From a virus (lineage: Duplodnaviria; Heunggongvirae; Uroviricota; Caudoviricetes): a DNA stretch of 43,385 nucleotides. The notes below the pieces were generated by a model. It was not told the origin of the DNA, did not search any database, and worked only from the letters and a program-made list of their open reading frames with translations. Position numbers and translations under genes: made by a program. The stretch covers positions 1 to 43,385 of the IMG/VR virus record IMGVR_UViG_2778261121_000005. The stretch is one strand, 5' to 3'. This document shows, one piece after another, positions 1,240 to 41,967 of this stretch (its first letter is position 1; each line of letters begins with the position of its first letter).

Positions 1240-1716
1240 ATGAAACTCATCAGTAACGATCTGCGCGATGGCGATAAGCTGCCGCATCGTCATGTCTTTA
1301 ACGGCATGGGTTACGATGGCGATAATATTTCACCGCATCTGGCGTGGGATGATGTTCCTGTGGGAACGAAAAGTTTTGTTGTCACCTGCTATGACCCGGA
1401 TGCGCCAACCGGCTCCGGCTGGTGGCACTGGGTAGTTGTTAATTTACCCGCTGATACCCGCGTATTACCGCAAGGGTTTGGCTCTGGTCTGGTAGCTATG
1501 CCAGACGGCGTTTTGCAGACGCGTACCGACTTTGGTAAAACCGGGTACGATGGCGCAGCGCCGCCGAAAGGCGAAACCCATCGCTACATTTTTACCGTTC
1601 ACGCGCTGGATGTAGAACGTATTGATGTCGATGAAGGTGCCAGCGGCGCGATGGTCGGGTTTAACGTTCATTTTCACTCTCTGGCGAGTGCCTCGATTAC
1701 TGCGATGTTTAGTTAA
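1240..1716 (+). CDS. ybhB: PEBP/UPF0098-family protein, host gene flanking att-lambda
   Basis: 158 aa with PEBP motifs (DPDAP, GxHRY); sits next to the bacterial B' arm of the att site; SD GGAGG upstream. Confidence 0.85.
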   Translation: MKLISNDLRDGDKLPHRHVFNGMGYDGDNISPHLAWDDVPVGTKSFVVTCYDPDAPTGSGWWHWVVVNLPADTRVLPQGFGSGLVAMPDGVLQTRTDFGKTGYDGAAPPKGETHRYIFTVHALDVERIDVDEGASGAMVGFNVHFHSLASASITAMFS

Positions 1717-22805: not shown

Positions 22806-23285
22806 TTAAATGATTTGCCAGTCTTCAGCCATCAGGTCGCCAATGGATGGAACCCATGTAGCAAGGCGGTTCTGTGAGTTTTTCAATACAAGCGTGTCAT
22901 TGAAAGTTGGCTCGCCAACATATTCGCCAAAGCCATAACCCAACGCAGACGCTAATTTTTCCCCTTTCATGAGATAAACAAACTGGTCTTTCCCATTCCA
23001 TCCTGCCCGCTGCAAACTTTTGCCCTGTTTTAACGCTTCCATGGCAAGGCCGAAACTTAGTCCTGATACCGGACGATAAGCCCTTTCGAATACTTCTTTT
23101 GGACTCCAGCTAACGTAGCCATCAAAGCGATCGGTGTTAGGTTTTCCGCCATCCAGATATTCAACCAGATAGCCTTCGTCCTCGCCGTTTTCTCCGGCAG
23201 GAAGCTGCCAGCCACGAAAATCGTTATATGCCTGTCTCGTCATCGGAAAGGCGTTAATCAGTTTTACGCCAATATGCTGGGTCAT
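22806..23285 (-). CDS. hypothetical protein with DUF2829-like C-terminal half
   Basis: 159 aa; C-terminal segment (AMEALKQGKSLQRAGWNGKDQFVYLM) resembles DUF2829 proteins common in phages. Confidence 0.45.
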   Translation of the reverse strand: MTQHIGVKLINAFPMTRQAYNDFRGWQLPAGENGEDEGYLVEYLDGGKPNTDRFDGYVSWSPKEVFERAYRPVSGLSFGLAMEALKQGKSLQRAGWNGKDQFVYLMKGEKLASALGYGFGEYVGEPTFNDTLVLKNSQNRLATWVPSIGDLMAEDWQII

Positions 23286-26365: not shown

Positions 26366-26549
26366 CTCTTTCACTCCATCCGCGATGAACCATGAGAACG
26401 TCGTTGACTATGGCGTGCATTTTCCCGTCTTTATCATCAACGTATTTTCTGACCGTACCGCGACTACATTTCAGTCTGCGTGCCACTTCTGTCTGGTTTC
26501 CGTATGCTTCAACGAGCATGTCTGGAATGGTTTTTACTGAGAACGTCAT
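26343..26549 (-). CDS. ninH: NinH
   Basis: 68 aa, matches lambda NinH as recalled; HTH-like. Confidence 0.85.
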
Positions 26550-27157
26550 GCGGCCTCACTTCTGCTATTTCGCAGGTCTTTGAGTTTCTGTTGGTACTCT
26601 GCCTTGATCGCCTTGCACTCTTCGACAGTCCAGCGATGGCGGTTATGGTTTGATTCGATTTCGTCTACTGCTTCCTGCCCGATTCGGTTAATCAGTTCGA
26701 CGCGATACGGAACGAGATTTCCGCTTTTATGCTGGTTGCACACCACGCATTGCTTGTGAATATTGCGTTCATCAAATCGGAGTTGAGGTGCCGCAGCAGT
26801 TGTCCGGTAATGTCCAGCATCCCACTGAGCAGACGTGAGCGTTCCGCACGAGATACATGGTAAGTCGCGGTCTCTTTCTCTGATGAAGGCGTTTACGGCT
26901 TGTTGGGCTTGTTTAATCCAGTAACTGCGGGGCTTTAAGGCGAGTTTTCGAATCTTAAGTTTATCTTTCTGTTTCTGCTCCTCTCGTCGTCGTTTCTTCT
27001 CTGCTGCCTTTTCCGCTTTTTCGCGTTCTTTGCTTCGTCGTTCGAGTGCTATCTTGGTTCCACACTCTGGAGAGCACCACCACTGATTGGCGAATGCAGG
27101 GTGAAACCATTCCCGACATTCATCGTTTTTACATCGTCTTCGCGCTGGTTTAGCCAT
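26546..27157 (-). CDS. ninG: NinG (Rap recombination endonuclease)
   Basis: 203 aa; cysteine-rich N-terminus ([12 protein letters not shown]...WCSPEC) and HNH-like core; lambda NinG-like. Confidence 0.85.
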
Positions 27158-27499: not shown

Positions 27500-28023
27500 G
27501 CCGCCCTCCTGACACCCCGCCCGATCGCCATCAATGCCGCTTTGGATACGGTAGTAAACATCCGTCGAGGACTGATGAACGGTCGCCAAATCAGCAGCAT
27601 GGAGCCTTTGCTGTTTCCCTTCTTCTCCAGCCCTGTCGATGGTTCGATAAAATTAATCCGTCCATCAGTGATGATGCGAACTTCGTCGACACTCTCCAGA
27701 GCCTTGCTGAACCATCCGACTGACATATCCTCTGGCACAAGCATAACTACCGTCTGTCGCTGTTGTATGCACTGCTCAGCGGCTTTTTCCACCCACGGCC
27801 TGATATTGCTGTACGGTGGGTTATTCCAGATTGCACCGTGGCTTATCCACTCAGAATTGAGTGCGTCGTCGGCCTCAGTTAGCCAGTGAGCGCACAGAGC
27901 ATTTTTGTCGCTCGCTGCCGAATCCAGCCAGAATCCAAACTCAATATCCAGTGCATCAAAAAGCCAAAGCGGCGTTTGCCAGCAGTCCTTGTCGTGTGCT
28001 GCCGTATTTGATTTGATAGTCAT
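27496..28023 (-). CDS. phage DNA N6-adenine methyltransferase (Dam-like, orphan)
   Basis: 175 aa from ATG with SD GGGGAGA; catalytic NPPY motif (IWNNPPYS); no adjacent restriction endonuclease gene. Confidence 0.8.
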
Positions 28024-28460
28024 GCAGCCCGATCTCCCCATCGCGCTTTCCATTCGAGAGCTAGTCGCGCTTCGTCTGACCACTTAACGCCACGCTCTGT
28101 ACCGAATGCCTGTATAAGCTCTAATAGCTCCGCAAATTCGCTTACACGCATCCTGCTGGTTGACTGGCCTATTACCACAAAGCCATTCCCGGCAAGGTTA
28201 GGAACAACGTCCTGCTGCTTTAATGCTGCGGTAAACACACACTTCCAGCTTTCTGCATCCAGCCAGCGACCATGCCATTCAACCTGACGCGAAACGTCAC
28301 CAAGGCAAGCCCAAAGCTTCCGATTTTGGTCTAAGCTGCGGTTGCGCTCCTGAATGGTTACTACGATTGGTTTGGTTGGGTCTGGAAGAATTTGCTGTAC
28401 CGCGTGAATAGCGTTTTGCTGATGTGCTGGAGATCGAATTTCAAAGGTTAGTTTTTTCAT
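28020..28460 (-). CDS. ninB: NinB (Orf-family recombination mediator)
   Basis: 146 aa, same length and nin-region position as lambda NinB. Confidence 0.8.
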   Translation of the reverse strand: MKKLTFEIRSPAHQQNAIHAVQQILPDPTKPIVVTIQERNRSLDQNRKLWACLGDVSRQVEWHGRWLDAESWKCVFTAALKQQDVVPNLAGNGFVVIGQSTSRMRVSEFAELLELIQAFGTERGVKWSDEARLALEWKARWGDRAA

Positions 28461-31641: not shown

Positions 31642-32301
31642 ATGAAAATGAAATGGTATGAACTGGCTAGATCCAGAATGAAAGAGCTCGGCATAACTCA
31701 AGAGAAGTTAGCTGAAGAGCTTGGTATGACGCAGGGTGGAATTGGTCACTGGTTGCGCGGATCTCGTCATCCATCTCTTGACGAGATTGGTGTGGTGTTT
31801 AAATACCTTGGTATTGATAACGTCTCATTCAACCACGACGGTACATTTTCACCTGCTGGCGAATACTCATCTGCCCCCGTTAAAAAACAATATGAGTACC
31901 CTGTTTTTTCTCATGTTCAGGCCGGGATGTTCTCGCCTGAGCTTAGAACCTTTACCAAAGGTGATGCGGAGAGATGGGTCAGCACAACCAAAAAAGCCAG
32001 TGATTGTGCGTTTTGGCTTGAAGTTGAAGGTAATTCCATGACCGCACCAACAGGATCCAAGCCAAGCTTTCCTGACGGAATGTTAATTCTCGTTGACCCT
32101 GAGCAGGCTGTTGAGCCAGGAGATTTCTGCATAGCCAGACTTGGCGGTGACGAGTTTACCTTCAAGAAACTGATCAGGGATAGCGGTCAGGTGTTCCTAC
32201 AACCACTAAACCCGCAATATCCAATGATCCCATGCAATGATAGCTGTTCCGTAGTAGGGAAAGTTATCGCCAGCCAGTGGCCTGAAGAGACATTTAGTTA
32301 A
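31642..32301 (+). CDS. cI: prophage repressor (CI / P22 C2-like, LexA-type S24 peptidase domain)
   Basis: 219 aa; N-terminal HTH ([25 protein letters not shown]); C-terminal domain resembles P22 C2 ([13 protein letters not shown]...LVDPE...FKKL...PLNPQYPMI). Confidence 0.9.
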
Positions 32302-32965: not shown

Positions 32966-33244
32966 ATGAAGCCTAGCATAACAATCAAGCCAGCGAGAGA
33001 TAATAGCAGGAACCGCCGCAGAGAGGCCAGGAAGGCAGAAAGAGCAGAGAAGGAAAACAAGAGCCGGGAGGAGAGAAAGGCAGAGATTTTGGAAAAAGGA
33101 GGATTGGCTGCCGTGAGGGGTGAAAAAGCAGCTGAATTAGCAGTAGCTCACGAAAAGACAGAGATTGACAATAATTCTGGTGGAGATGCAATGTTTAAAG
33201 TTGTCAATCACGCCCATCAACGAAACCCCAAAAAGAAATGGTAA
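32966..33244 (+). CDS. hypothetical Lys/Arg/Glu-rich protein (92 aa)
   Basis: ORF starting 3 nt after the antiterminator stop; highly charged; followed by a terminator. Confidence 0.45.
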   Translation: MKPSITIKPARDNSRNRRREARKAERAEKENKSREERKAEILEKGGLAAVRGEKAAELAVAHEKTEIDNNSGGDAMFKVVNHAHQRNPKKKW

Positions 33245-33842: not shown

Positions 33843-34060
33843 AATTTTTTTGGCATAAACAACAGAATAAACACTGCACTGTGTATTCATTCCAACGAGT
33901 GAATACACGGAGCAATGTTGCTCGTAACTAAACAGGAGCCGACTTGTTCTGATTATTGGAAATCTTCTTTGCCCTCCAGTGTGAGGGCTTTTTTATATGC
34001 ATACCAATAACGCTTCACTCGAGGCGTTTTCGTTATGCAATCAAATATAAGGAGTTACCC

Positions 34061-34195
34061 ATGATGCACTTTCAGCTCGCGGGTAGCGGCGTCATGTCCG
34101 CTTTCTACCCGCACGAATCTGAATTATCACGCCGAGTTAAACAATTAATCAGAGCAGCAAAGAAACAACTGGAGGCGTTATGCGCAATGAAATAG
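34061..34195 (+). CDS. cIII: CIII-like protein (FtsH inhibitor)
   Basis: 44 aa from ATG with SD AAGGAG; ...LAGSGVMSAFYPHESELSRRVKQLIRAAKK parallels the lambda CIII amphipathic region. Confidence 0.7.
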   Translation: MMHFQLAGSGVMSAFYPHESELSRRVKQLIRAAKKQLEALCAMK

Positions 34196-34332
34196 CCATT
34201 AATCACCAGATGCTTCGTGCTGCACAGAACAAAGCAGTAATAGCCCGATTTATTGGTGATTCAAAAATGTGGCTTGAAGCAAATAAAGCGATGAAATCAG
34301 CTATCAACCTTCCGTGGTATCGCAGGAAATGA
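34180..34332 (+). CDS. kil: Kil-like host division inhibitor
   Basis: 50 aa; ARFIGDSKMWLEANKAMKSAI resembles lambda Kil; overlaps the cIII end; not in ORF track (under 60 aa). Confidence 0.6.
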   Translation: MRNEIAINHQMLRAAQNKAVIARFIGDSKMWLEANKAMKSAINLPWYRRK

Positions 34333-34413
34333 GTTTTACAGATAACTGGTCAGACGAAGAATTCATTCGTCAGATGAAAGAAATGCTCAATCAGCACAAA
34401 GAACAGGAGAAAG

Positions 34414-34725
34414 ATGATGATTCTGACTCTGAATGATAAGCGTGAAATATCGCAAATAATCGCAAGTTTTACTGATGAAGATTACGAACGAATCAACAGT
34501 GAAGTTGATCGCCTCTGCAAACGTTGCGACCCAATAAGCGAAATGCTTCGCTCATATAAACCAGATGAACACACTAAGGACGCTATCGACTGGCTGGAAG
34601 ATGATGACTGTAACTATCAGGAAAAAGCCGCTGAATGGTTCTGGGATGCAATAACCGAAAGAGTTAAGGCTGAATATGCCTTCGCAATATTCAAACGCAG
34701 ACACATTTTTGGAGAAGCTGCATGA
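34414..34725 (+). CDS. hypothetical acidic protein (103 aa) upstream of recT
   Basis: Stop overlaps the recT start (ATGA); acidic, Trp-rich. Confidence 0.5.
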   Translation: MMILTLNDKREISQIIASFTDEDYERINSEVDRLCKRCDPISEMLRSYKPDEHTKDAIDWLEDDDCNYQEKAAEWFWDAITERVKAEYAFAIFKRRHIFGEAA

Positions 34726-35633
34726 GCAATATCGTTGAATTCGTTAAACAGCAGGAGCAGTTATTCTGCGGAGCATTGACTGAACAGACGGTGACATGGG
34801 CTAAGGAAAGCCAGTTTGCAATTCAGTATTTCCAGAAAAACGATTACCTGGCTAAAACAGCACTGGCAAATCCAACCAGCGCACAGAACGCCATCATCAA
34901 TGTTGCGGCGATCGGCATCACCTTAAACCCGGCCAGCAAACTGGCTTATCTGGTTCCTCGCGACGGCATGGTGTGCCTTGATATCAGCTATATGGGATTG
35001 CTCCATATTGCAATGGAGTCTGGTGTTATCTCATGGGGTCAGGCAAAACTTGTTCATGCTAACGATACCTATGAGTCAAACGGGCTTGATAAAGCACCAA
35101 CCCATAAATACAACGCCTTCGGTGACCGTGGTGATATCGTTGGCGTTTACTGCACAGTTAAGACGCCAGCAGGTGATTATCTAACGGAAGAGATGAGTCT
35201 GGCTGAAATTGAGGCTGTAAGGAAAACAAGCAAGGCAGCATTCAGCGATAAAGGACCATGGGTAAATCACTGGAATGAGATGGCGCGAAAGACGGTCGTA
35301 AAGCGTGCAAGCAAGTATTGGCCTAAGGCATCACGCCTTGATAGTGCTATTCACGTACTAAACGAAGAAGAAGGCGTGTGGACCGAACCAGTTATGCCGC
35401 ACAAATCAGAGGAAGATATCCGCGAAGATGAACGGAAACGCCAGCAGGAAATAATGGATAAAGCACAACTTCTTTGCGATGAAATGGCTCAGGCAGAAAA
35501 CATGGATGATTTGAAGCGATATTTTGCAGAAGCATATCGCCTGACATCTGGAATGAAATTGCAGCAGAACGTACAAGCCATTTACATAGAATGCAAAGCG
35601 AAACTGGAGGTTGCCAGTGAGCAAACTGTATGA
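34722..35633 (+). CDS. recT: RecT-family single-strand annealing recombinase
   Basis: 303 aa; GPWVNHWNEMARKTVVKRASKYWP matches the conserved RecT segment. Confidence 0.85.
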   Translation: MSNIVEFVKQQEQLFCGALTEQTVTWAKESQFAIQYFQKNDYLAKTALANPTSAQNAIINVAAIGITLNPASKLAYLVPRDGMVCLDISYMGLLHIAMESGVISWGQAKLVHANDTYESNGLDKAPTHKYNAFGDRGDIVGVYCTVKTPAGDYLTEEMSLAEIEAVRKTSKAAFSDKGPWVNHWNEMARKTVVKRASKYWPKASRLDSAIHVLNEEEGVWTEPVMPHKSEEDIREDERKRQQEIMDKAQLLCDEMAQAENMDDLKRYFAEAYRLTSGMKLQQNVQAIYIECKAKLEVASEQTV

Positions 35634-36099
35634 AATTGCCAATGAATACGCAAAATTGATGGATTCAGATTTAGAACCAGAGATGATTGCTGACACAATA
35701 GAAGGCATGGAAGGAGAATTTACCGATAAAATAGAGCAACTTCTTGCCATTATTAAAAATGAATCTGGTTATGCTGAACGCCTCAAGGAAGAGGCAAAGT
35801 CACTGAATGAGCGAGCCGCAGTAATTCAAAATAAGATTGGCAGCATTATGGCGTATATAGCGTCATCGCTTGAAATGGTTGGCAAGAAAAAGATTAGAGC
35901 AGGTATTCACCAGGTAACAATCCGCAAACCGTCAGAAACTGTAGAAATCATCGACTCAAGCGCCCTTCCTCCTGAATACGTTGAGTTTGAAACGACAATT
36001 AAAGCCGACAAACTGGCAATCAAACACCAACTAAAAGCAGGAATAAATATCCCCGGCGCTCAACTCAAAGTTGGGAAACCTTCACTTCTTATCAAATAA
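35611..36099 (+). CDS. hypothetical protein, possibly Siphovirus Gp157-like
   Basis: 162 aa, acidic N-terminal half; family assignment from memory; start overlaps the recT end. Confidence 0.45.
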   Translation: MPVSKLYEIANEYAKLMDSDLEPEMIADTIEGMEGEFTDKIEQLLAIIKNESGYAERLKEEAKSLNERAAVIQNKIGSIMAYIASSLEMVGKKKIRAGIHQVTIRKPSETVEIIDSSALPPEYVEFETTIKADKLAIKHQLKAGINIPGAQLKVGKPSLLIK

Positions 36100-36110
36100 C
36101 GGTATCGCCT

Positions 36111-36425
36111 ATGAAAAAGACTCCATGGGAGAAATGGGAAGTCGATTTCTTGCGCGAAGTGGCGGCGACAATGCCAGTTGAAGTTATCGCTGAAAAACTG
36201 GAAAGGACTGAAAAAGCAGTAATGGCGAAAGCAACAAGGATTGGCGCTGACATTGTTAGCCGACTTCGTGGAAGACGCTGGACAAGAGCCGAAGTATCAC
36301 TTTTCGGTAAGTTCTCCGCAGAAGAAATAGCAATTGCAACCTGCCGCTCAATTTATTCAGTAAGAGCTATGCGATACAAGCTAAAAAAACTCGATGAAGA
36401 AAGAGCAGGCATACGAATAAATTAA
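36111..36425 (+). CDS. hypothetical protein with two internal HTH-like repeats
   Basis: 104 aa; repeated W-x2-E-V-x2-L ... IA ... R pattern ([10 protein letters not shown]...[12 protein letters not shown] and [10 protein letters not shown]...[12 protein letters not shown]). Confidence 0.45.
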
Positions 36426-37715: not shown

Positions 37716-37925
37716 ATGGCTATCGCTGCAAGTTACACCATGCATCTCTATTGTGACTGCCGCCAGTGTACGGAAGGTGTATATCCAGTGCCAGACTTCG
37801 GTGAGTATATCGGTACGTCATGGTCTGGTTGTGCAAAAGAGGCCCGTAAAGACGGGTGGCGAATAAGTAAAGACAAAACACGTGCTTTTGCGCCCGGGCA
37901 TAAAGTTTTGAGGATTAACAAATGA
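37716..37925 (+). CDS. hypothetical Cys-containing small protein (69 aa)
   Basis: Internal ATG after SD AAAGGAGAGTGAT; CDCRQC motif. Confidence 0.45.
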   Translation: MAIAASYTMHLYCDCRQCTEGVYPVPDFGEYIGTSWSGCAKEARKDGWRISKDKTRAFAPGHKVLRINK

Positions 37926-38284
37926 CCACTATTACCAAAGAACGTATCGAATTATTCATTAAAAATCCGCTTGATAACGGGCTTACCCGTGGCGAACAAA
38001 TGGAACTGGCACGAATTGCGCTGGCATCACTGGAAGCCGAACCGGTTGCAGTAAACGACGACATGGCTTACGCATTCCATCACGCATTGTCAGATTCATC
38101 GCTAGGCGCTGATGAAGTAGAGGAAATTAAGGCCGGTTTGCGTGCTGCCTTTGCCAACGTCACTATCCAACCAGAGCCGGTAGTGCCGGATGAAATCGAG
38201 CCAGACGATAGCAATACGTTTGATTATGTTGATGGCTGGAACGCCTGCCGCGCTGCCATGCTTCAGGGTAAGGGAGGTGAGTAA
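37922..38284 (+). CDS. hypothetical protein sharing an N-terminal module with the 39159..39698 gene
   Basis: 120 aa; ITKER...ELARIALASLEAEPV shared with the downstream paralogue at protein and DNA level. Confidence 0.5.
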   Translation: MTTITKERIELFIKNPLDNGLTRGEQMELARIALASLEAEPVAVNDDMAYAFHHALSDSSLGADEVEEIKAGLRAAFANVTIQPEPVVPDEIEPDDSNTFDYVDGWNACRAAMLQGKGGE

Positions 38285-38646: not shown

Positions 38647-39162
38647 ATGGCGTTAACACACCGCGAACTCTGTCAGATTGCGTATAAGTTCCTTAAGCGT
38701 AACGGGTTCAAGGTTTGTTTTCATGACCGCTTTATAGCTGTAACCAGTACCGGAGAACAGCCAGATGCTATGGGATTCAGAAATTCAGCATCATGCCTGA
38801 TAGAGGCGAAGTGTTCTCGTGCTGACTTGTTGGCAGATAGAAAAAAGCGTTTTCGTAAAAATCCATCTCTTGGAATGGGCGACTGGCGATTCTTTATTAG
38901 TGAGCCGGGAATTATTTCAGTTGAGGATTTACCACCTGGCTGGGGATTACTTCACGTTGTTAACGGAAGAGTACGGAAAGTACATGGGTGGCCCAAGGGT
39001 AATTGCTGTTGGGGTAATCCTGACGATAAGCCATTTACTGGAAATAAGCAGGTTGAATGCGATTACATGTTATCTGCATTAAGGCGCATGGAGTTGAGAG
39101 GGCACCTTAATGAAATATATGACGGTGTAATTGTTAATAAGAAAGAAGGAAACGCGGCATGA
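38647..39162 (+). CDS. hypothetical protein with PD-(D/E)xK nuclease-like motif
   Basis: 171 aa from ATG after SD AAAGGAGAGTGAT; ...GEQPDAMGF...CLIEAKCSR fits a PD...(D/E)xK core. Confidence 0.5.
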   Translation: MALTHRELCQIAYKFLKRNGFKVCFHDRFIAVTSTGEQPDAMGFRNSASCLIEAKCSRADLLADRKKRFRKNPSLGMGDWRFFISEPGIISVEDLPPGWGLLHVVNGRVRKVHGWPKGNCCWGNPDDKPFTGNKQVECDYMLSALRRMELRGHLNEIYDGVIVNKKEGNAA

Positions 39163-39698
39163 TCACTATTACCAAAGAGCGACTGCTGACAATCAAGCAG
39201 TGGCGCGAAACATACGGACCGGGTAGCAACGTTGTACTGCCAGCAGAAGAAGCGGAAGAACTGGCACGAATTGCTCTGGCATCGCTGGAAGCAGAGCCTG
39301 TAAACCAAACTTACAACTTACCAGAATTAATCGAAGGCATGGAAGTTTCCATTGATGTAAGCACTTGTGATGCTGATTTAGGTAATCGCTATTTCGGCAC
39401 CGTCACCGAGGCGTTAGAACTTGATACAGCCAAGAATGGTTACATCCTCCTGGTTCAGGACGCAGAGCCAAACTTCGATGTAAATGGCAACTCTCCGGTA
39501 ACTCCGGATGGCTGGATAAGCTGTAGTGAGCGAATGCCCCCTCAAGATGATTGGATTTTAATTTATTCAAAGCACGGCGAGTATATGGCAGGACAGGTAC
39601 AAGGGGAATACGTGGAGTTGAGCGACGGCACTTTATCGTGGTTAGGGAACGCCTTGTTCTGGATGCCGCTACCAGAACCGCCGCAGGAGGCGAAATGA
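39159..39698 (+). CDS. hypothetical protein, possibly DUF551-type C-terminus
   Basis: 179 aa; N-terminal module paralogous to 37922..38284; C-terminus (GWISCSERMPPQDDWILIYSKHGEYMAGQ...WMPLPEPP) recalled as DUF551-like. Confidence 0.5.
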   Translation: MITITKERLLTIKQWRETYGPGSNVVLPAEEAEELARIALASLEAEPVNQTYNLPELIEGMEVSIDVSTCDADLGNRYFGTVTEALELDTAKNGYILLVQDAEPNFDVNGNSPVTPDGWISCSERMPPQDDWILIYSKHGEYMAGQVQGEYVELSDGTLSWLGNALFWMPLPEPPQEAK

Positions 39699-40700: not shown

Positions 40701-40919
40701 ATGTACTTGACACTTCAGGAGTGGAACGCACGCCAGCGACGCCCAAGAAGCCTTGAAACAGTTCGTCGATGGGTACGCGAGTGCAGGATATTCCCACCAC
40801 CGGTTAAGGATGGAAGAGAGTATCTGTTCCACGAATCAGCAGTAAAGGTTGACTTAAATCGACCAGTAACAGGTAGCCTTTTGAAGAGGATCAGAAATGG
40901 GAAGAAGGCGAAGTCATGA
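40701..40919 (+). CDS. xis: excisionase (lambda Xis)
   Basis: 72 aa MYLTLQEWNARQRRPRSLETVRRWVRECRIFPPPVKDGREYLFHESAVKVDLNRP..., near-identical to lambda Xis as recalled. Confidence 0.95.
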   Translation: MYLTLQEWNARQRRPRSLETVRRWVRECRIFPPPVKDGREYLFHESAVKVDLNRPVTGSLLKRIRNGKKAKS

Positions 40920-41967
40920 GCGCCGGGATTTACCCCCTAACCTTTATATAAGAAACAATGGATATTACTGCTACAGGGACCCAAGGACGGGTAAAGAGTT
41001 TGGATTAGGCCGAGACAGGAGGATAGCAATCACTGAAGCTATACAGGCCAACATTGAGTTATTTTCAGGACACAAGCACAAGCCTCTGACAGCGAGAATC
41101 AACAGTGATAATTCTGTTACGTTACATTCATGGCTTGATCGCTACGAAAAAATCCTCGCCAGCAGAGGAATCAAGCAGAAGACACTCATAAATTACATGA
41201 GCAAAATTAAAGCAATAAGGAGGGGTCTGCCTGATGCTCCACTTGAAAACATCACCACAAAAGAAATTGCGGCAATGCTCAATGGATACATAGACGAGGG
41301 CAAGGCGGCGTCAGCCAAGTTAATCAGATCAACACTGAGCGATGCATTCCGAGAGGCAATAGCTGAAGGCCATATAACAACAAACCCTGTCGCTGCCACT
41401 CGCGCAGCAAAATCAGAGGTAAGGAGATCAAGACTTACGGCTGACGAATACCTGAAAATTTATCAAGCAGCAGAATCATCACCATGTTGGCTCAGACTTG
41501 CAATGGAACTGGCTGTTGTTACCGGGCAGCGAGTTGGTGATTTATGCGAAATGAAGTGGTCTGATATCGTAGATGGATATCTTTATGTCGAGCAAAGCAA
41601 AACAGGCGTAAAAATTGCCATCCCAACAGCATTGCATGTTGATGCTCTCGGGATATCAATGAAGGAAACACTTGATAAATGCAAAGAGATTCTTGGCGGA
41701 GAAACCATAATTGCATCTACTCGTCGTGAACCGCTTTCATCCGGCACAGTATCAAGGTATTTTATGCGCGCACGAAAAGCATCAGGTCTTTCCTTCGAAG
41801 GGGATCCGCCAACCTTTCACGAGTTGCGCAGTTTGTCTGCAAGACTCTATGAGAAGCAGATAAGCGATAAATTTGCTCAACATCTTCTCGGGCATAAGTC
41901 GGACACCATGGCATCACAGTATCGTGATGACAGAGGCAGGGAGTGGGACAAAATTGAAATCAAATAA
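40897..41967 (+). CDS. int: tyrosine integrase (lambda Int)
   Basis: 356 aa, near-identical to lambda Int as recalled (MGRRRSHERRDLPPNLYIRNNGYYCYRDPRTGKEFGLGRDRRIAITEAIQAN...); overlaps xis. Confidence 0.95.
   Translation: MGRRRSHERRDLPPNLYIRNNGYYCYRDPRTGKEFGLGRDRRIAITEAIQANIELFSGHKHKPLTARINSDNSVTLHSWLDRYEKILASRGIKQKTLINYMSKIKAIRRGLPDAPLENITTKEIAAMLNGYIDEGKAASAKLIRSTLSDAFREAIAEGHITTNPVAATRAAKSEVRRSRLTADEYLKIYQAAESSPCWLRLAMELAVVTGQRVGDLCEMKWSDIVDGYLYVEQSKTGVKIAIPTALHVDALGISMKETLDKCKEILGGETIIASTRREPLSSGTVSRYFMRARKASGLSFEGDPPTFHELRSLSARLYEKQISDKFAQHLLGHKSDTMASQYRDDRGREWDKIEIK

Follow-up and report, generated by a model that had tools for sequence, protein, structure and literature searches.

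The 43,385-nucleotide stretch of DNA analysed here, referred to below as the window, is a caudoviricete sequence from IMG/VR (record IMGVR_UViG_2778261121_000005), and it carries a gene for the annealing protein RecT with no obvious exonuclease gene beside it. An earlier note, made from the letters of the window, treated this as an anomaly and offered two ways out of it, namely a non-canonical nuclease partner, for which a small protein encoded at 38647-39162 was the candidate, or an accessory role, such as inhibition of a host nuclease, for one of the small proteins encoded on either side of recT. The question posed by the locus is thus what, if anything, stands in the place of the exonuclease. 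The genes of the module can be identified, no recognisable exonuclease is among them, the cassette recurs in other phages, and its genes are tightly packed or overlap. The module is a near-identical copy of a nuclease-free recombination (Rec) module that has already been catalogued, and as such is real but ordinary. The best explanation, and in our view a likely one, is a P22-class module of the HK140/mEpX1/Gally type, in which a single-strand annealing protein (SSAP) is combined with an anti-RecBCD function, DNA ends are capped by a Gp157-family protein, a tail on RecT acts as an adaptor, and accessory proteins are encoded at the edges.

Layout of the module

The module lies in the early-left operon of a lambdoid prophage, where the gene order is cIII, kil, a small open reading frame (ORF), p103, recT, gp157 and an abc1-like gene. 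The parts of the operon that concern the argument are the following:

34329-34436, plus strand, small ORF between kil and p103, 35 amino acids from the ATG at 34329 (listed as 40 amino acids from a GTG at 34314)
34417-34725, plus strand, p103, encoding an acidic protein of 102 amino acids, phrog_3486 (103 amino acids from the alternative ATG at 34414)
34722-35633, plus strand, recT, matching PF03837 and TIGR00616
34722-35396, plus strand, annealing core of RecT, residues ~1-225
35427-35633, plus strand, C-terminal tail of RecT, residues ~236-303
35617-36099, plus strand, gp157, encoding 160 amino acids, PF05565 (Sipho_Gp157)
36111-36425, plus strand, Abc1-like gene with a basic product of 104 amino acids, phrog_323

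The identity of RecT is clear from a match to PF03837 above the curated cut-off (E=3.7e-32, 111.9 bits against a cut-off of 24, residues 31-217), and from a match to TIGR00616 (82.4 bits, cut-off 52.65). The protein is not an equivalog of Rac RecT (NF007351, 101.7 bits against a cut-off of 296), and is 100% identical to the RecT of phage mEpX1. The p103 ORF overlaps the start of recT by 4 nucleotides, and the two are translationally coupled, while recT and gp157 overlap by 17 nucleotides. The start codon of gp157 is most likely the GTG at 35617, because a GGAGG sequence lies 7 nucleotides upstream of it, inside recT, and because this start gives the 160-amino-acid length seen in all homologues. 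The description of recT as flanked by an acidic protein upstream (isoelectric point (pI) 4.65, net charge -9) and a Gp157-like protein downstream was borne out; the Abc1-like gene at 36111-36425 had been missed among the neighbours.

The search for an exonuclease

Profile searches of the ORFs flanking recT for homology to RecE or Exo, the result that the earlier note had said would make this an ordinary pair, were negative. The scanned ORFs of the early-left operon gave no match to the lambda Exo, RecE, YqaJ or DUF3799 families, and no family of single-stranded DNA-binding protein (SSB) was found in the operon. The nin region encodes only NinB, Dam, NinE, NinG, a phosphatase and Q, and NinG is not a resection exonuclease. 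When six exonuclease or nuclease queries (lambda Exo, the C-terminus of RecE, phi346 Exo, a Vibrio YqaJ-like protein, the PMG1 exonuclease and DUF3799) were run with phmmer against the window in all six reading frames, no E-value fell below 0.43. The comparison was extended by a survey in which 80 viral contigs and 17 species-representative genome loci that encode the Gp157 clade of the window, together with annotated phages, were put through a local profile scan; in 104 related loci, no lambda Exo or RecE homologue lies within 3.5 kb of Gp157. RecT without an adjacent exonuclease is therefore confirmed, and the adjacent gene for a 5'-3' double-stranded DNA exonuclease by which two-component systems of the RecET or lambda Red type are recognised is missing from this locus.

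One ORF of the window deserves separate mention, as it had been singled out as the possible partner:

38647-39162, plus strand, ORF of 171 amino acids with a basic product (pI 9.3), phrog_9263/phrog_631 (function unknown)

If the product of this ORF were the displaced exonuclease partner of RecT, its string PDAMGF...LIEAKCS, which by eye only resembles a PD-(D/E)xK motif, and its weak match to phrog_5429 ('DNA repair protein', E=0.0023) would have a ready meaning. However, there is no Pfam, NCBIfam or PDB-sequence match for the ORF, it lies about 2.2 kb from the module, with ea-type genes in between, and it accompanies only about 6 of the 104 related cassettes. The same ORF is found on P1-like (plasmid) phages and on TL-2011b/c phages that lack a window-type recT, and non-contiguous nucleases are in any case excluded from Rec modules by Zheng et al. 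(PMC12315714). A displaced partner is thus extremely improbable; the ORF has no link with the module, and its product makes no credible partner for RecT. The ORF was also compared with EaE of Gally, which is 171 amino acids as well, and with EaE of P22, and is neither of these.

A catalogued class of nuclease-free modules

The lack of a nuclease is not in itself an anomaly. In the analysis of 325 lambdoid phages by Zheng, Casjens, Davidson, Amundsen and Smith (2025), a nuclease is missing from 84 of the 246 enterobacterial lambdoid Rec modules, and 46 phages make up a 'P22 class', with P22 as the classic example, that has an anti-RecBCD function and a strand-annealing protein but neither nuclease nor SSB (PMC12315714). 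Phage HK140 is listed there with strand-annealing protein type 4 (SAP-4) and a MuGam-type anti-RecBCD protein, and with no nuclease and no SSB (PMC12315714). The module in the window belongs in the same class, being a contiguous early-left cluster with a strand-annealing protein gene and an anti-RecBCD gene and with no gene for a nuclease or SSB, where the anti-RecBCD assignment is one of MuGam-type homology.

By megablast, the cassette is ~97% identical in Gally, Kapi1, mEpX1, HK140, Dewey, Louie and others, and the phage records annotate the three genes as RecT, 'Mu Gam-like end protection', and 'Abc1-like' or 'D5-like regulator'. The HK140, mEpX1 and Gally modules have the same genes in the same order with the same p103 and Abc1-like neighbours, and are 97-99% identical to the window in Gp157 and 97-100% identical in the tail of RecT. 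The module itself shows no difference; what differs is confined to the neighbouring ea-region genes and to the integrase and attachment site, as expected of ordinary mosaicism.

The likeness to P22 itself (arf, erf, abc1, abc2) is one of organisation. Both have an annealing protein without a phage exonuclease, an Abc1-family protein (phrog_323) encoded downstream, and a RecBCD-directed accessory, putative in the case of the window, and both modules occupy the same early-left place after cIII and kil. The annealing protein of the window is RecT, however, whereas that of P22 is Erf, and P22 Abc2 binds RecC and re-programmes RecBCD, whereas the window has a putative Mu Gam-like end binder and no Abc2 homologue. 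With Arf, only a 7-residue motif is shared. It is found in the small ORF at 34329-34436, which has an AGGAA sequence 5' of its ATG; the product of this ORF and P22 Arf have the N-terminal motif SDEEFI in common, the BLASTP match covering 6 of 7 residues only (E=0.01). The ORF further matches phrog_17766 (E=1.1e-15) and phrog_2123 ('recombinase'), the latter with E=8e-12.

With the lambda Red (gam, bet, exo) and Rac RecET systems the window shares the order of inhibitor slot, annealing protein and partner, the overlapping of genes, and an annealing-protein C-terminal segment that varies with the partner. The differences lie in the occupants of the slots: the partner position is held by Gp157 and not by a PD-(D/E)xK 5'-3' exonuclease, and the Gam position of lambda Red is held by p103, in which no similarity to Gam, GamL or Abc2 can be detected.

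A module of so few genes could also be the decayed, non-functional remnant of a RecET or Red system that has lost its exonuclease. Zheng et al. call few-gene modules 'somewhat suspect' (PMC12315714), and a Gally phage deleted for recT-gam-abc1 can still form particles and lysogens (PMC9928086). Against decay, all ORFs of the module are intact and translationally coupled, cassette length is kept despite amino acid divergence in Escherichia, Salmonella, Citrobacter, Enterobacter, Serratia, Pantoea, Aeromonas and Vibrio, and the cassette is present in plaque-forming phages. Decay of this sort has very little to recommend it as the explanation of the locus. In Gally, recT-gam-abc1 is described as a 'recombination module', and is induced 3.6-fold in macrophages (PMC9928086).

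The Gp157-family protein as a probable distant relative of Mu Gam

The protein encoded directly downstream of recT occupies the position that Exo holds in lambda. It matches PF05565 over the full length of the profile (positions 1-162 of 162; E=2.2e-36, 125.7 bits against a cut-off of 28.6), and matches phrog_253, 'Mu Gam-like end protection', with E=7e-53. The link to Mu Gam, a Ku-like DNA-end-binding protein, is more distant. Against PF07352 (Phage_Mu_Gam) the window protein scores 16.2 bits (E=0.01), which is below the cut-off of 28.3 but colinear, and the same profile is matched by five members of a diverse 17-protein Gp157 set (identities as low as 31%), the best with E=0.0019. Alignment of the two families with hhalign gave E=0.087 in a first run on shallow alignments, where the residues invariant within each family already fell opposite each other, and E=0.0024 once more diverse Gp157 sequences were included, pairing residues 92-158 with 94-164 at a probability of only 12%.

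Other features of the two proteins agree. Gp157 is 160 amino acids long and Mu Gam 174, their C-terminal domains are colinear with matching family-invariant positions G-K-x-K...G...R-x-P-S and K-x-A-I, and an Abc1-family gene (Mu gp9) adjoins Mu gam as the Abc1-like gene adjoins gp157. They do, however, fall in separate families (PF05565 versus PF07352) and separate PHROGs (253 versus 491). The AlphaFold2 (AF2) model of Gp157 (mean predicted local distance difference test score (pLDDT) 77.7) has a 68-residue helix (residues 21-88) followed by a small beta-rich C-terminal domain; fold searches and a profile search of PDB sequences were uninformative. Taken on its homology, Gp157 is probably a DNA-end binder distantly related to Mu Gam, and a putative anti-RecBCD protein.

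The position of Gp157 immediately after, and overlapping, the SSAP gene is also where a nuclease would be expected, and it may be asked whether Gp157 could be a nuclease of non-canonical type, substituting for Exo and providing RecT with resected ends. In a Foldseek search of BFVD, the model has weak matches to PD-(D/E)XK, YqaJ and Cas4-like phage proteins (E 0.04-1.4, query-normalised TM-scores 0.23-0.40), but these are not significant. When distant members of the family are aligned, the invariant positions are L4, D26, K38, L56, E59, R66, Y80, P118, I135, G142, G147, K154, I159 and K160, and the C-terminal domain retains no conserved set of acidic or lysine residues, so that a concealed nuclease is disfavoured. 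Mu Gam, an end binder and not a nuclease, is the sole profile with a colinear match. A nuclease role for Gp157 is accordingly very doubtful.

The idea that a small protein next to recT serves as an accessory, for instance as a host-nuclease inhibitor, is thus favoured in the case of Gp157 by its Mu Gam-like homology, by the PHROGs label and by the literature (PMC12315714), although the premise that something anomalous needed explaining has fallen away. Indeed, since the Gp157-type protein of HK140 is counted as a MuGam anti-RecBCD protein (PMC12315714), the idea amounts to the accepted annotation of Gp157. In the searches against anti-RecBCD families that had been proposed, Gp157 is colinear with Mu Gam below the cut-off, and p103 has no similarity to Gam, GamL or Abc2. 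The window has a single Chi site (GCTGGTGG) in 43 kb, near the left end (1418-1425, plus strand), a count that is no more than chance expects (mean of 1.1 in shuffles) and that is consistent with the low Chi count typical of RecBCD-neutralising phages.

The tail of RecT and its association with Gp157

The last ~65 residues of RecT form a portable helical segment, for which, as for comparable tails, a Pfam scan returned no domain. The distribution of this tail follows that of Gp157. A tblastn search of 50,697 phage records with the last 71 residues of RecT found 24 records, and a tblastn search with Gp157 at an identity of at least 56% found the same records, 24 out of 24. In the survey, RecT with this tail lies immediately upstream in 100 of 105 Gp157 genes, while of the remaining five, one is preceded by an Erf that bears the tail and one by the tail on a core that was not detected, and three are truncated or have no SSAP match. 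The Erf is that of Pantoea phage PdC23; over its C-terminus it shares 57% identity with the RecT tail (E=7e-15) even though the cores are unrelated, and in this phage an HNH gene is inserted between the tail-bearing erf gene and gp157.

The converse is seen where an exonuclease follows the annealing protein. RecT cores that are 65-75% identical to that of the window, but that have an exonuclease downstream (phi346 and Vibrio phage 1.198.B), carry different tails. For instance, the RecT of phi346 is 65% identical to the window over the core (residues 1-233) and its gene is followed by that of an exonuclease; its tail is homologous to the C-terminal domain of lambda Beta (E=8e-24). This domain is the Exo-binding domain of Red-beta, and has been crystallised in complex with lambda Exo (PMC6393309). 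The tail of the window RecT is unrelated to it, and hence is not an exonuclease-matched tail of the Red-beta type.

Tail and core have also diverged separately. In a set of 84 distinct cassettes, the identity of the tail follows that of Gp157 (r=0.90) and not that of the core (r=0.43). Two RecT core alleles, ~84% and 100% identical to the window (seen in loci L098-L170 versus L001/L003), precede a near-invariant tail and Gp157, and in an Enterobacter locus (L182) the core is 98% identical to the window, while the tail and Gp157 are each 64% identical. The mosaic joint therefore lies inside recT, at the boundary of core and tail. On the simplest reading of these comparisons, the tail looks like a partner-specific adaptor that docks RecT on Gp157, with Gp157 in the place of Exo, much as the C-terminal domain of Red-beta docks on lambda Exo.

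The same association might have a different origin, in which Gp157 is a generic end-protector that makes no specific contact with RecT, and the tail binds another target (host SSB or the Abc1-like protein, for example) and is co-inherited with gp157 by adjacency. The tail codons directly abut gp157, so that linkage is to be expected, and the C-terminal domain of Red-beta has E. coli SSB as a second binding partner besides Exo (PMC6393309). Moreover, Gp157 or Mu gam-like genes are not restricted to one annealing protein; in Firmicutes phages they are found beside many SSAP types, including Erf and Sak4, and in Klebsiella, Roseburia and Vibrio phages they are found beside Sak4 and Sak. Against this, the mosaic joint lies at the boundary of core and tail and not at that of the genes, as is the case for the two RecT core alleles, for the Enterobacter locus and for the Erf core. 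In PdC23 and Louie, where an HNH gene has been inserted between the SSAP gene and gp157, tail and Gp157 are still found together. As for the other proposed targets, phi346 has the same host, and hence the same SSB, yet its tail is different and matched to Exo, and the Abc1-like protein varies among the cassettes that carry the tail. Linkage with some other target for the tail is thus unlikely, though it retains more than a token chance.

The Firmicutes modules surveyed by Steczkiewicz et al. (2021) resemble that of the window in having a Gp157-family gene beside an SSAP gene (erf-ssb, sak4-ssb) and no exonuclease (PMC8093625). They differ in that the SSAP of the window is RecT, which in that survey is typically paired with a YqaJ or DUF3799 exonuclease, that gp157 lies downstream of the SSAP gene in the window but upstream in theirs, and that the window has no SSB gene (PMC8093625).

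Accessory genes at the edges of the module

The p103 protein, whose family (phrog_3486, E=3.7e-59) is of unknown function, has no NCBIfam match and no Pfam match in a library without the GamL model PF28165. When lambda Gam, GamL and Abc2 served as phmmer queries for the six-frame translation of the window, all E-values exceeded 0.4, and p103 shows no detectable similarity to any of the three. Its AF2 model is a five-helix bundle (pLDDT 78.8), for which the best Foldseek match in the PDB has E=2.3, and neither Gam (2UUZ; PF06064) nor Abc2 (8B1T; PF11043) is among the matches. The family is small, with about 120 clusters at 90% identity, apparently all from Enterobacterales, and with 58 clusters at 50% identity in an exhaustive HMMER profile search of 1.84e9 proteins. 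Matches of the p103 profile to large, eukaryote-like saposin-repeat proteins (P0257, P0267, P0271; E=1e-10 to 1e-14) were discarded as an artefact of summed repeats that score 4-16 bits each, and a BLASTP comparison with P22 Abc2 found no similarity to p103.

What p103 may do is suggested by its position. Among the 104 loci, the slot 5' of recT is occupied by p103 in most, by lambda Gam in five (for instance in Dewey, PF06064 E=1.5e-50) and by GamL in three, including Serratia and HK639. Because lambda Gam or GamL replaces it in these sister cassettes, p103 is most likely directed at a host nuclease, by analogy of position. Relatives of p103 also head a RecE-type module (p103, a RecE-type exonuclease, phrog_11517 and Abc1-like/phrog_323; L201/L202, 3501-5513), and follow a Sak4-like/YfdP/DUF2303 module (L199/L200, 1172-3806), indicating that p103 is not tied to RecT.

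The basic 104-amino-acid protein encoded 3' of gp157 has two Myb/SANT-like helix-turn-helix repeats. It shares phrog_323 (E=2.8e-20) with P22 Abc1 (E=1.3e-23) and with Mu gp9 (E=5.2e-29). A direct BLASTP match is found to Mu gp9 (E=5e-05) but not to P22 Abc1, for which the PHROG profile is the only link; the homologue in Gally is annotated as Abc1-like. P22 Abc1 is said to assist in a manner reported as unknown (PMC12315714). The slot 3' of gp157 usually holds an Abc1-like gene, but phrog_1680 is found there in HK639, PA-1 and L203, and an SSB in Aeromonas phage phiA005, so that the Abc1-like protein is not constant among cassettes with the tail. Judged by these comparisons, p103 and the Abc1-like protein look like generic, interchangeable accessories at the edges of the module, and not like cofactors specific to RecT. 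As a separate observation, gp9 lies directly 5' of gam in Mu (L006 1483-2326, gp9 and gam), and the pairing of an Abc1-like with a Gam-like gene thus recurs in an unrelated phage.

Other genes of the prophage

The window holds a lambdoid prophage with P22-type virion genes that adjoins ybhC, in the lambda attachment region; the prophage is P22-like and lambdoid, is integrated at the lambda attachment site, and carries a module of the HK140/mEpX1/Gally type. An identical prophage was not found among complete E. coli genomes, where the best coverage was 68%. The remaining genes that place the module in its context are:

26546-27157, minus strand, NinG, Rap-type structure-specific endonuclease, PF05766 E=1.1e-91
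28020-28460, minus strand, NinB, Orf-type recombination mediator of the rightward operon, PF05772 E=1.1e-54
31642-32301, repressor
32571, plus strand, N-like antiterminator, the first listed gene of the early-left operon
32966-33244, plus strand, Nun-like transcription termination factor, directly 3' of the N-like antiterminator gene, phrog_5632 E=1.5e-29
33372, plus strand, ral
about 34060-34195, plus strand, cIII
34180-34332, plus strand, kil
3' of the Abc1-like gene, plus strand, remainder of the early-left operon, with ea22-like genes, DUF551 genes, xis and int
40701-40919, xis
40897-41967, integrase

NinB belongs to the broader recombination toolkit of the prophage. The Nun-like factor may exclude superinfecting lambda-type phages, as does Nun of HK022. 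A possible counter-defence gene, at 22806-23285 on the minus strand, encodes a protein of 159 amino acids with a Tad2-like domain (Thoeris anti-defence 2; PF11195, E=1.4e-21). In the ea region, the ORFs at 37922-38284 and 39159-39698 (plus strand) share an N-terminal segment (…ELARIALASLEAEPV…; phrog_60/3323/660) and represent a duplicated module, the second ORF additionally carrying DUF551.

A model for recombination without a phage exonuclease

The likely explanation offered at the outset, a P22-class module with a tail adaptor, can be put as a sequence of steps. Gp157, as a Mu Gam-like dimeric end binder, would cap double-strand ends and keep RecBCD off them; such ends could be those of rolling-circle tails, or of injected or cut DNA. 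RecT, tethered to Gp157 by its tail, would then anneal single-stranded DNA that is present at replication forks or exposed by the host. Resection, if needed at all, would be left to host functions. At the edges of the module, p103 would act on a host nuclease, and the Abc1-like protein would assist.

Several points weigh against this explanation. The association of tail and Gp157 could reflect physical linkage alone, given the abutting codons, and the tail might bind host SSB, by analogy with the C-terminal domain of Red-beta (PMC6393309). Some cassettes carry lambda Gam or GamL besides Gp157, which would be redundant if Gp157 were an anti-RecBCD factor and nothing more. Finally, the recT-gam-abc1 deletion of Gally, which was used as a marker, still yields lysogenising particles (PMC9928086), and the module is therefore dispensable under laboratory conditions.

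Nuclease-free modules that combine RecT with a MuGam-type protein are already catalogued for lambdoid phages, and stated in this form the finding adds nothing new. The adaptor idea and the position of p103 in the Gam slot go beyond the literature, and the comparisons suggest them as modest leads. Taken together they lead to a tentative proposal, which may well prove wrong but is possible: that Gp157 does more than cap ends passively against RecBCD and serves nuclease-free modules as a partner dedicated to the annealing protein, joined by a portable ~65-residue adaptor to a RecT or an Erf core, such that a Ku/Mu-Gam-like end binder takes over the loading role of Exo, and that the p103 family is a fifth, so far undescribed type of host-nuclease inhibitor, found in the Gam slot of several types of Rec module.

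If the tail is indeed a Gp157-docking adaptor, this would explain how annealing proteins come to be matched to partners that are not nucleases, and would provide a rule, of core plus tail plus partner, for moving such modules into recombineering hosts. Likewise, should RecBCD or some other host nuclease prove to be inhibited by p103, the known phage counter-defence proteins would gain a further member, as would the possible triggers of the defence systems that sense the inhibition of RecBCD.

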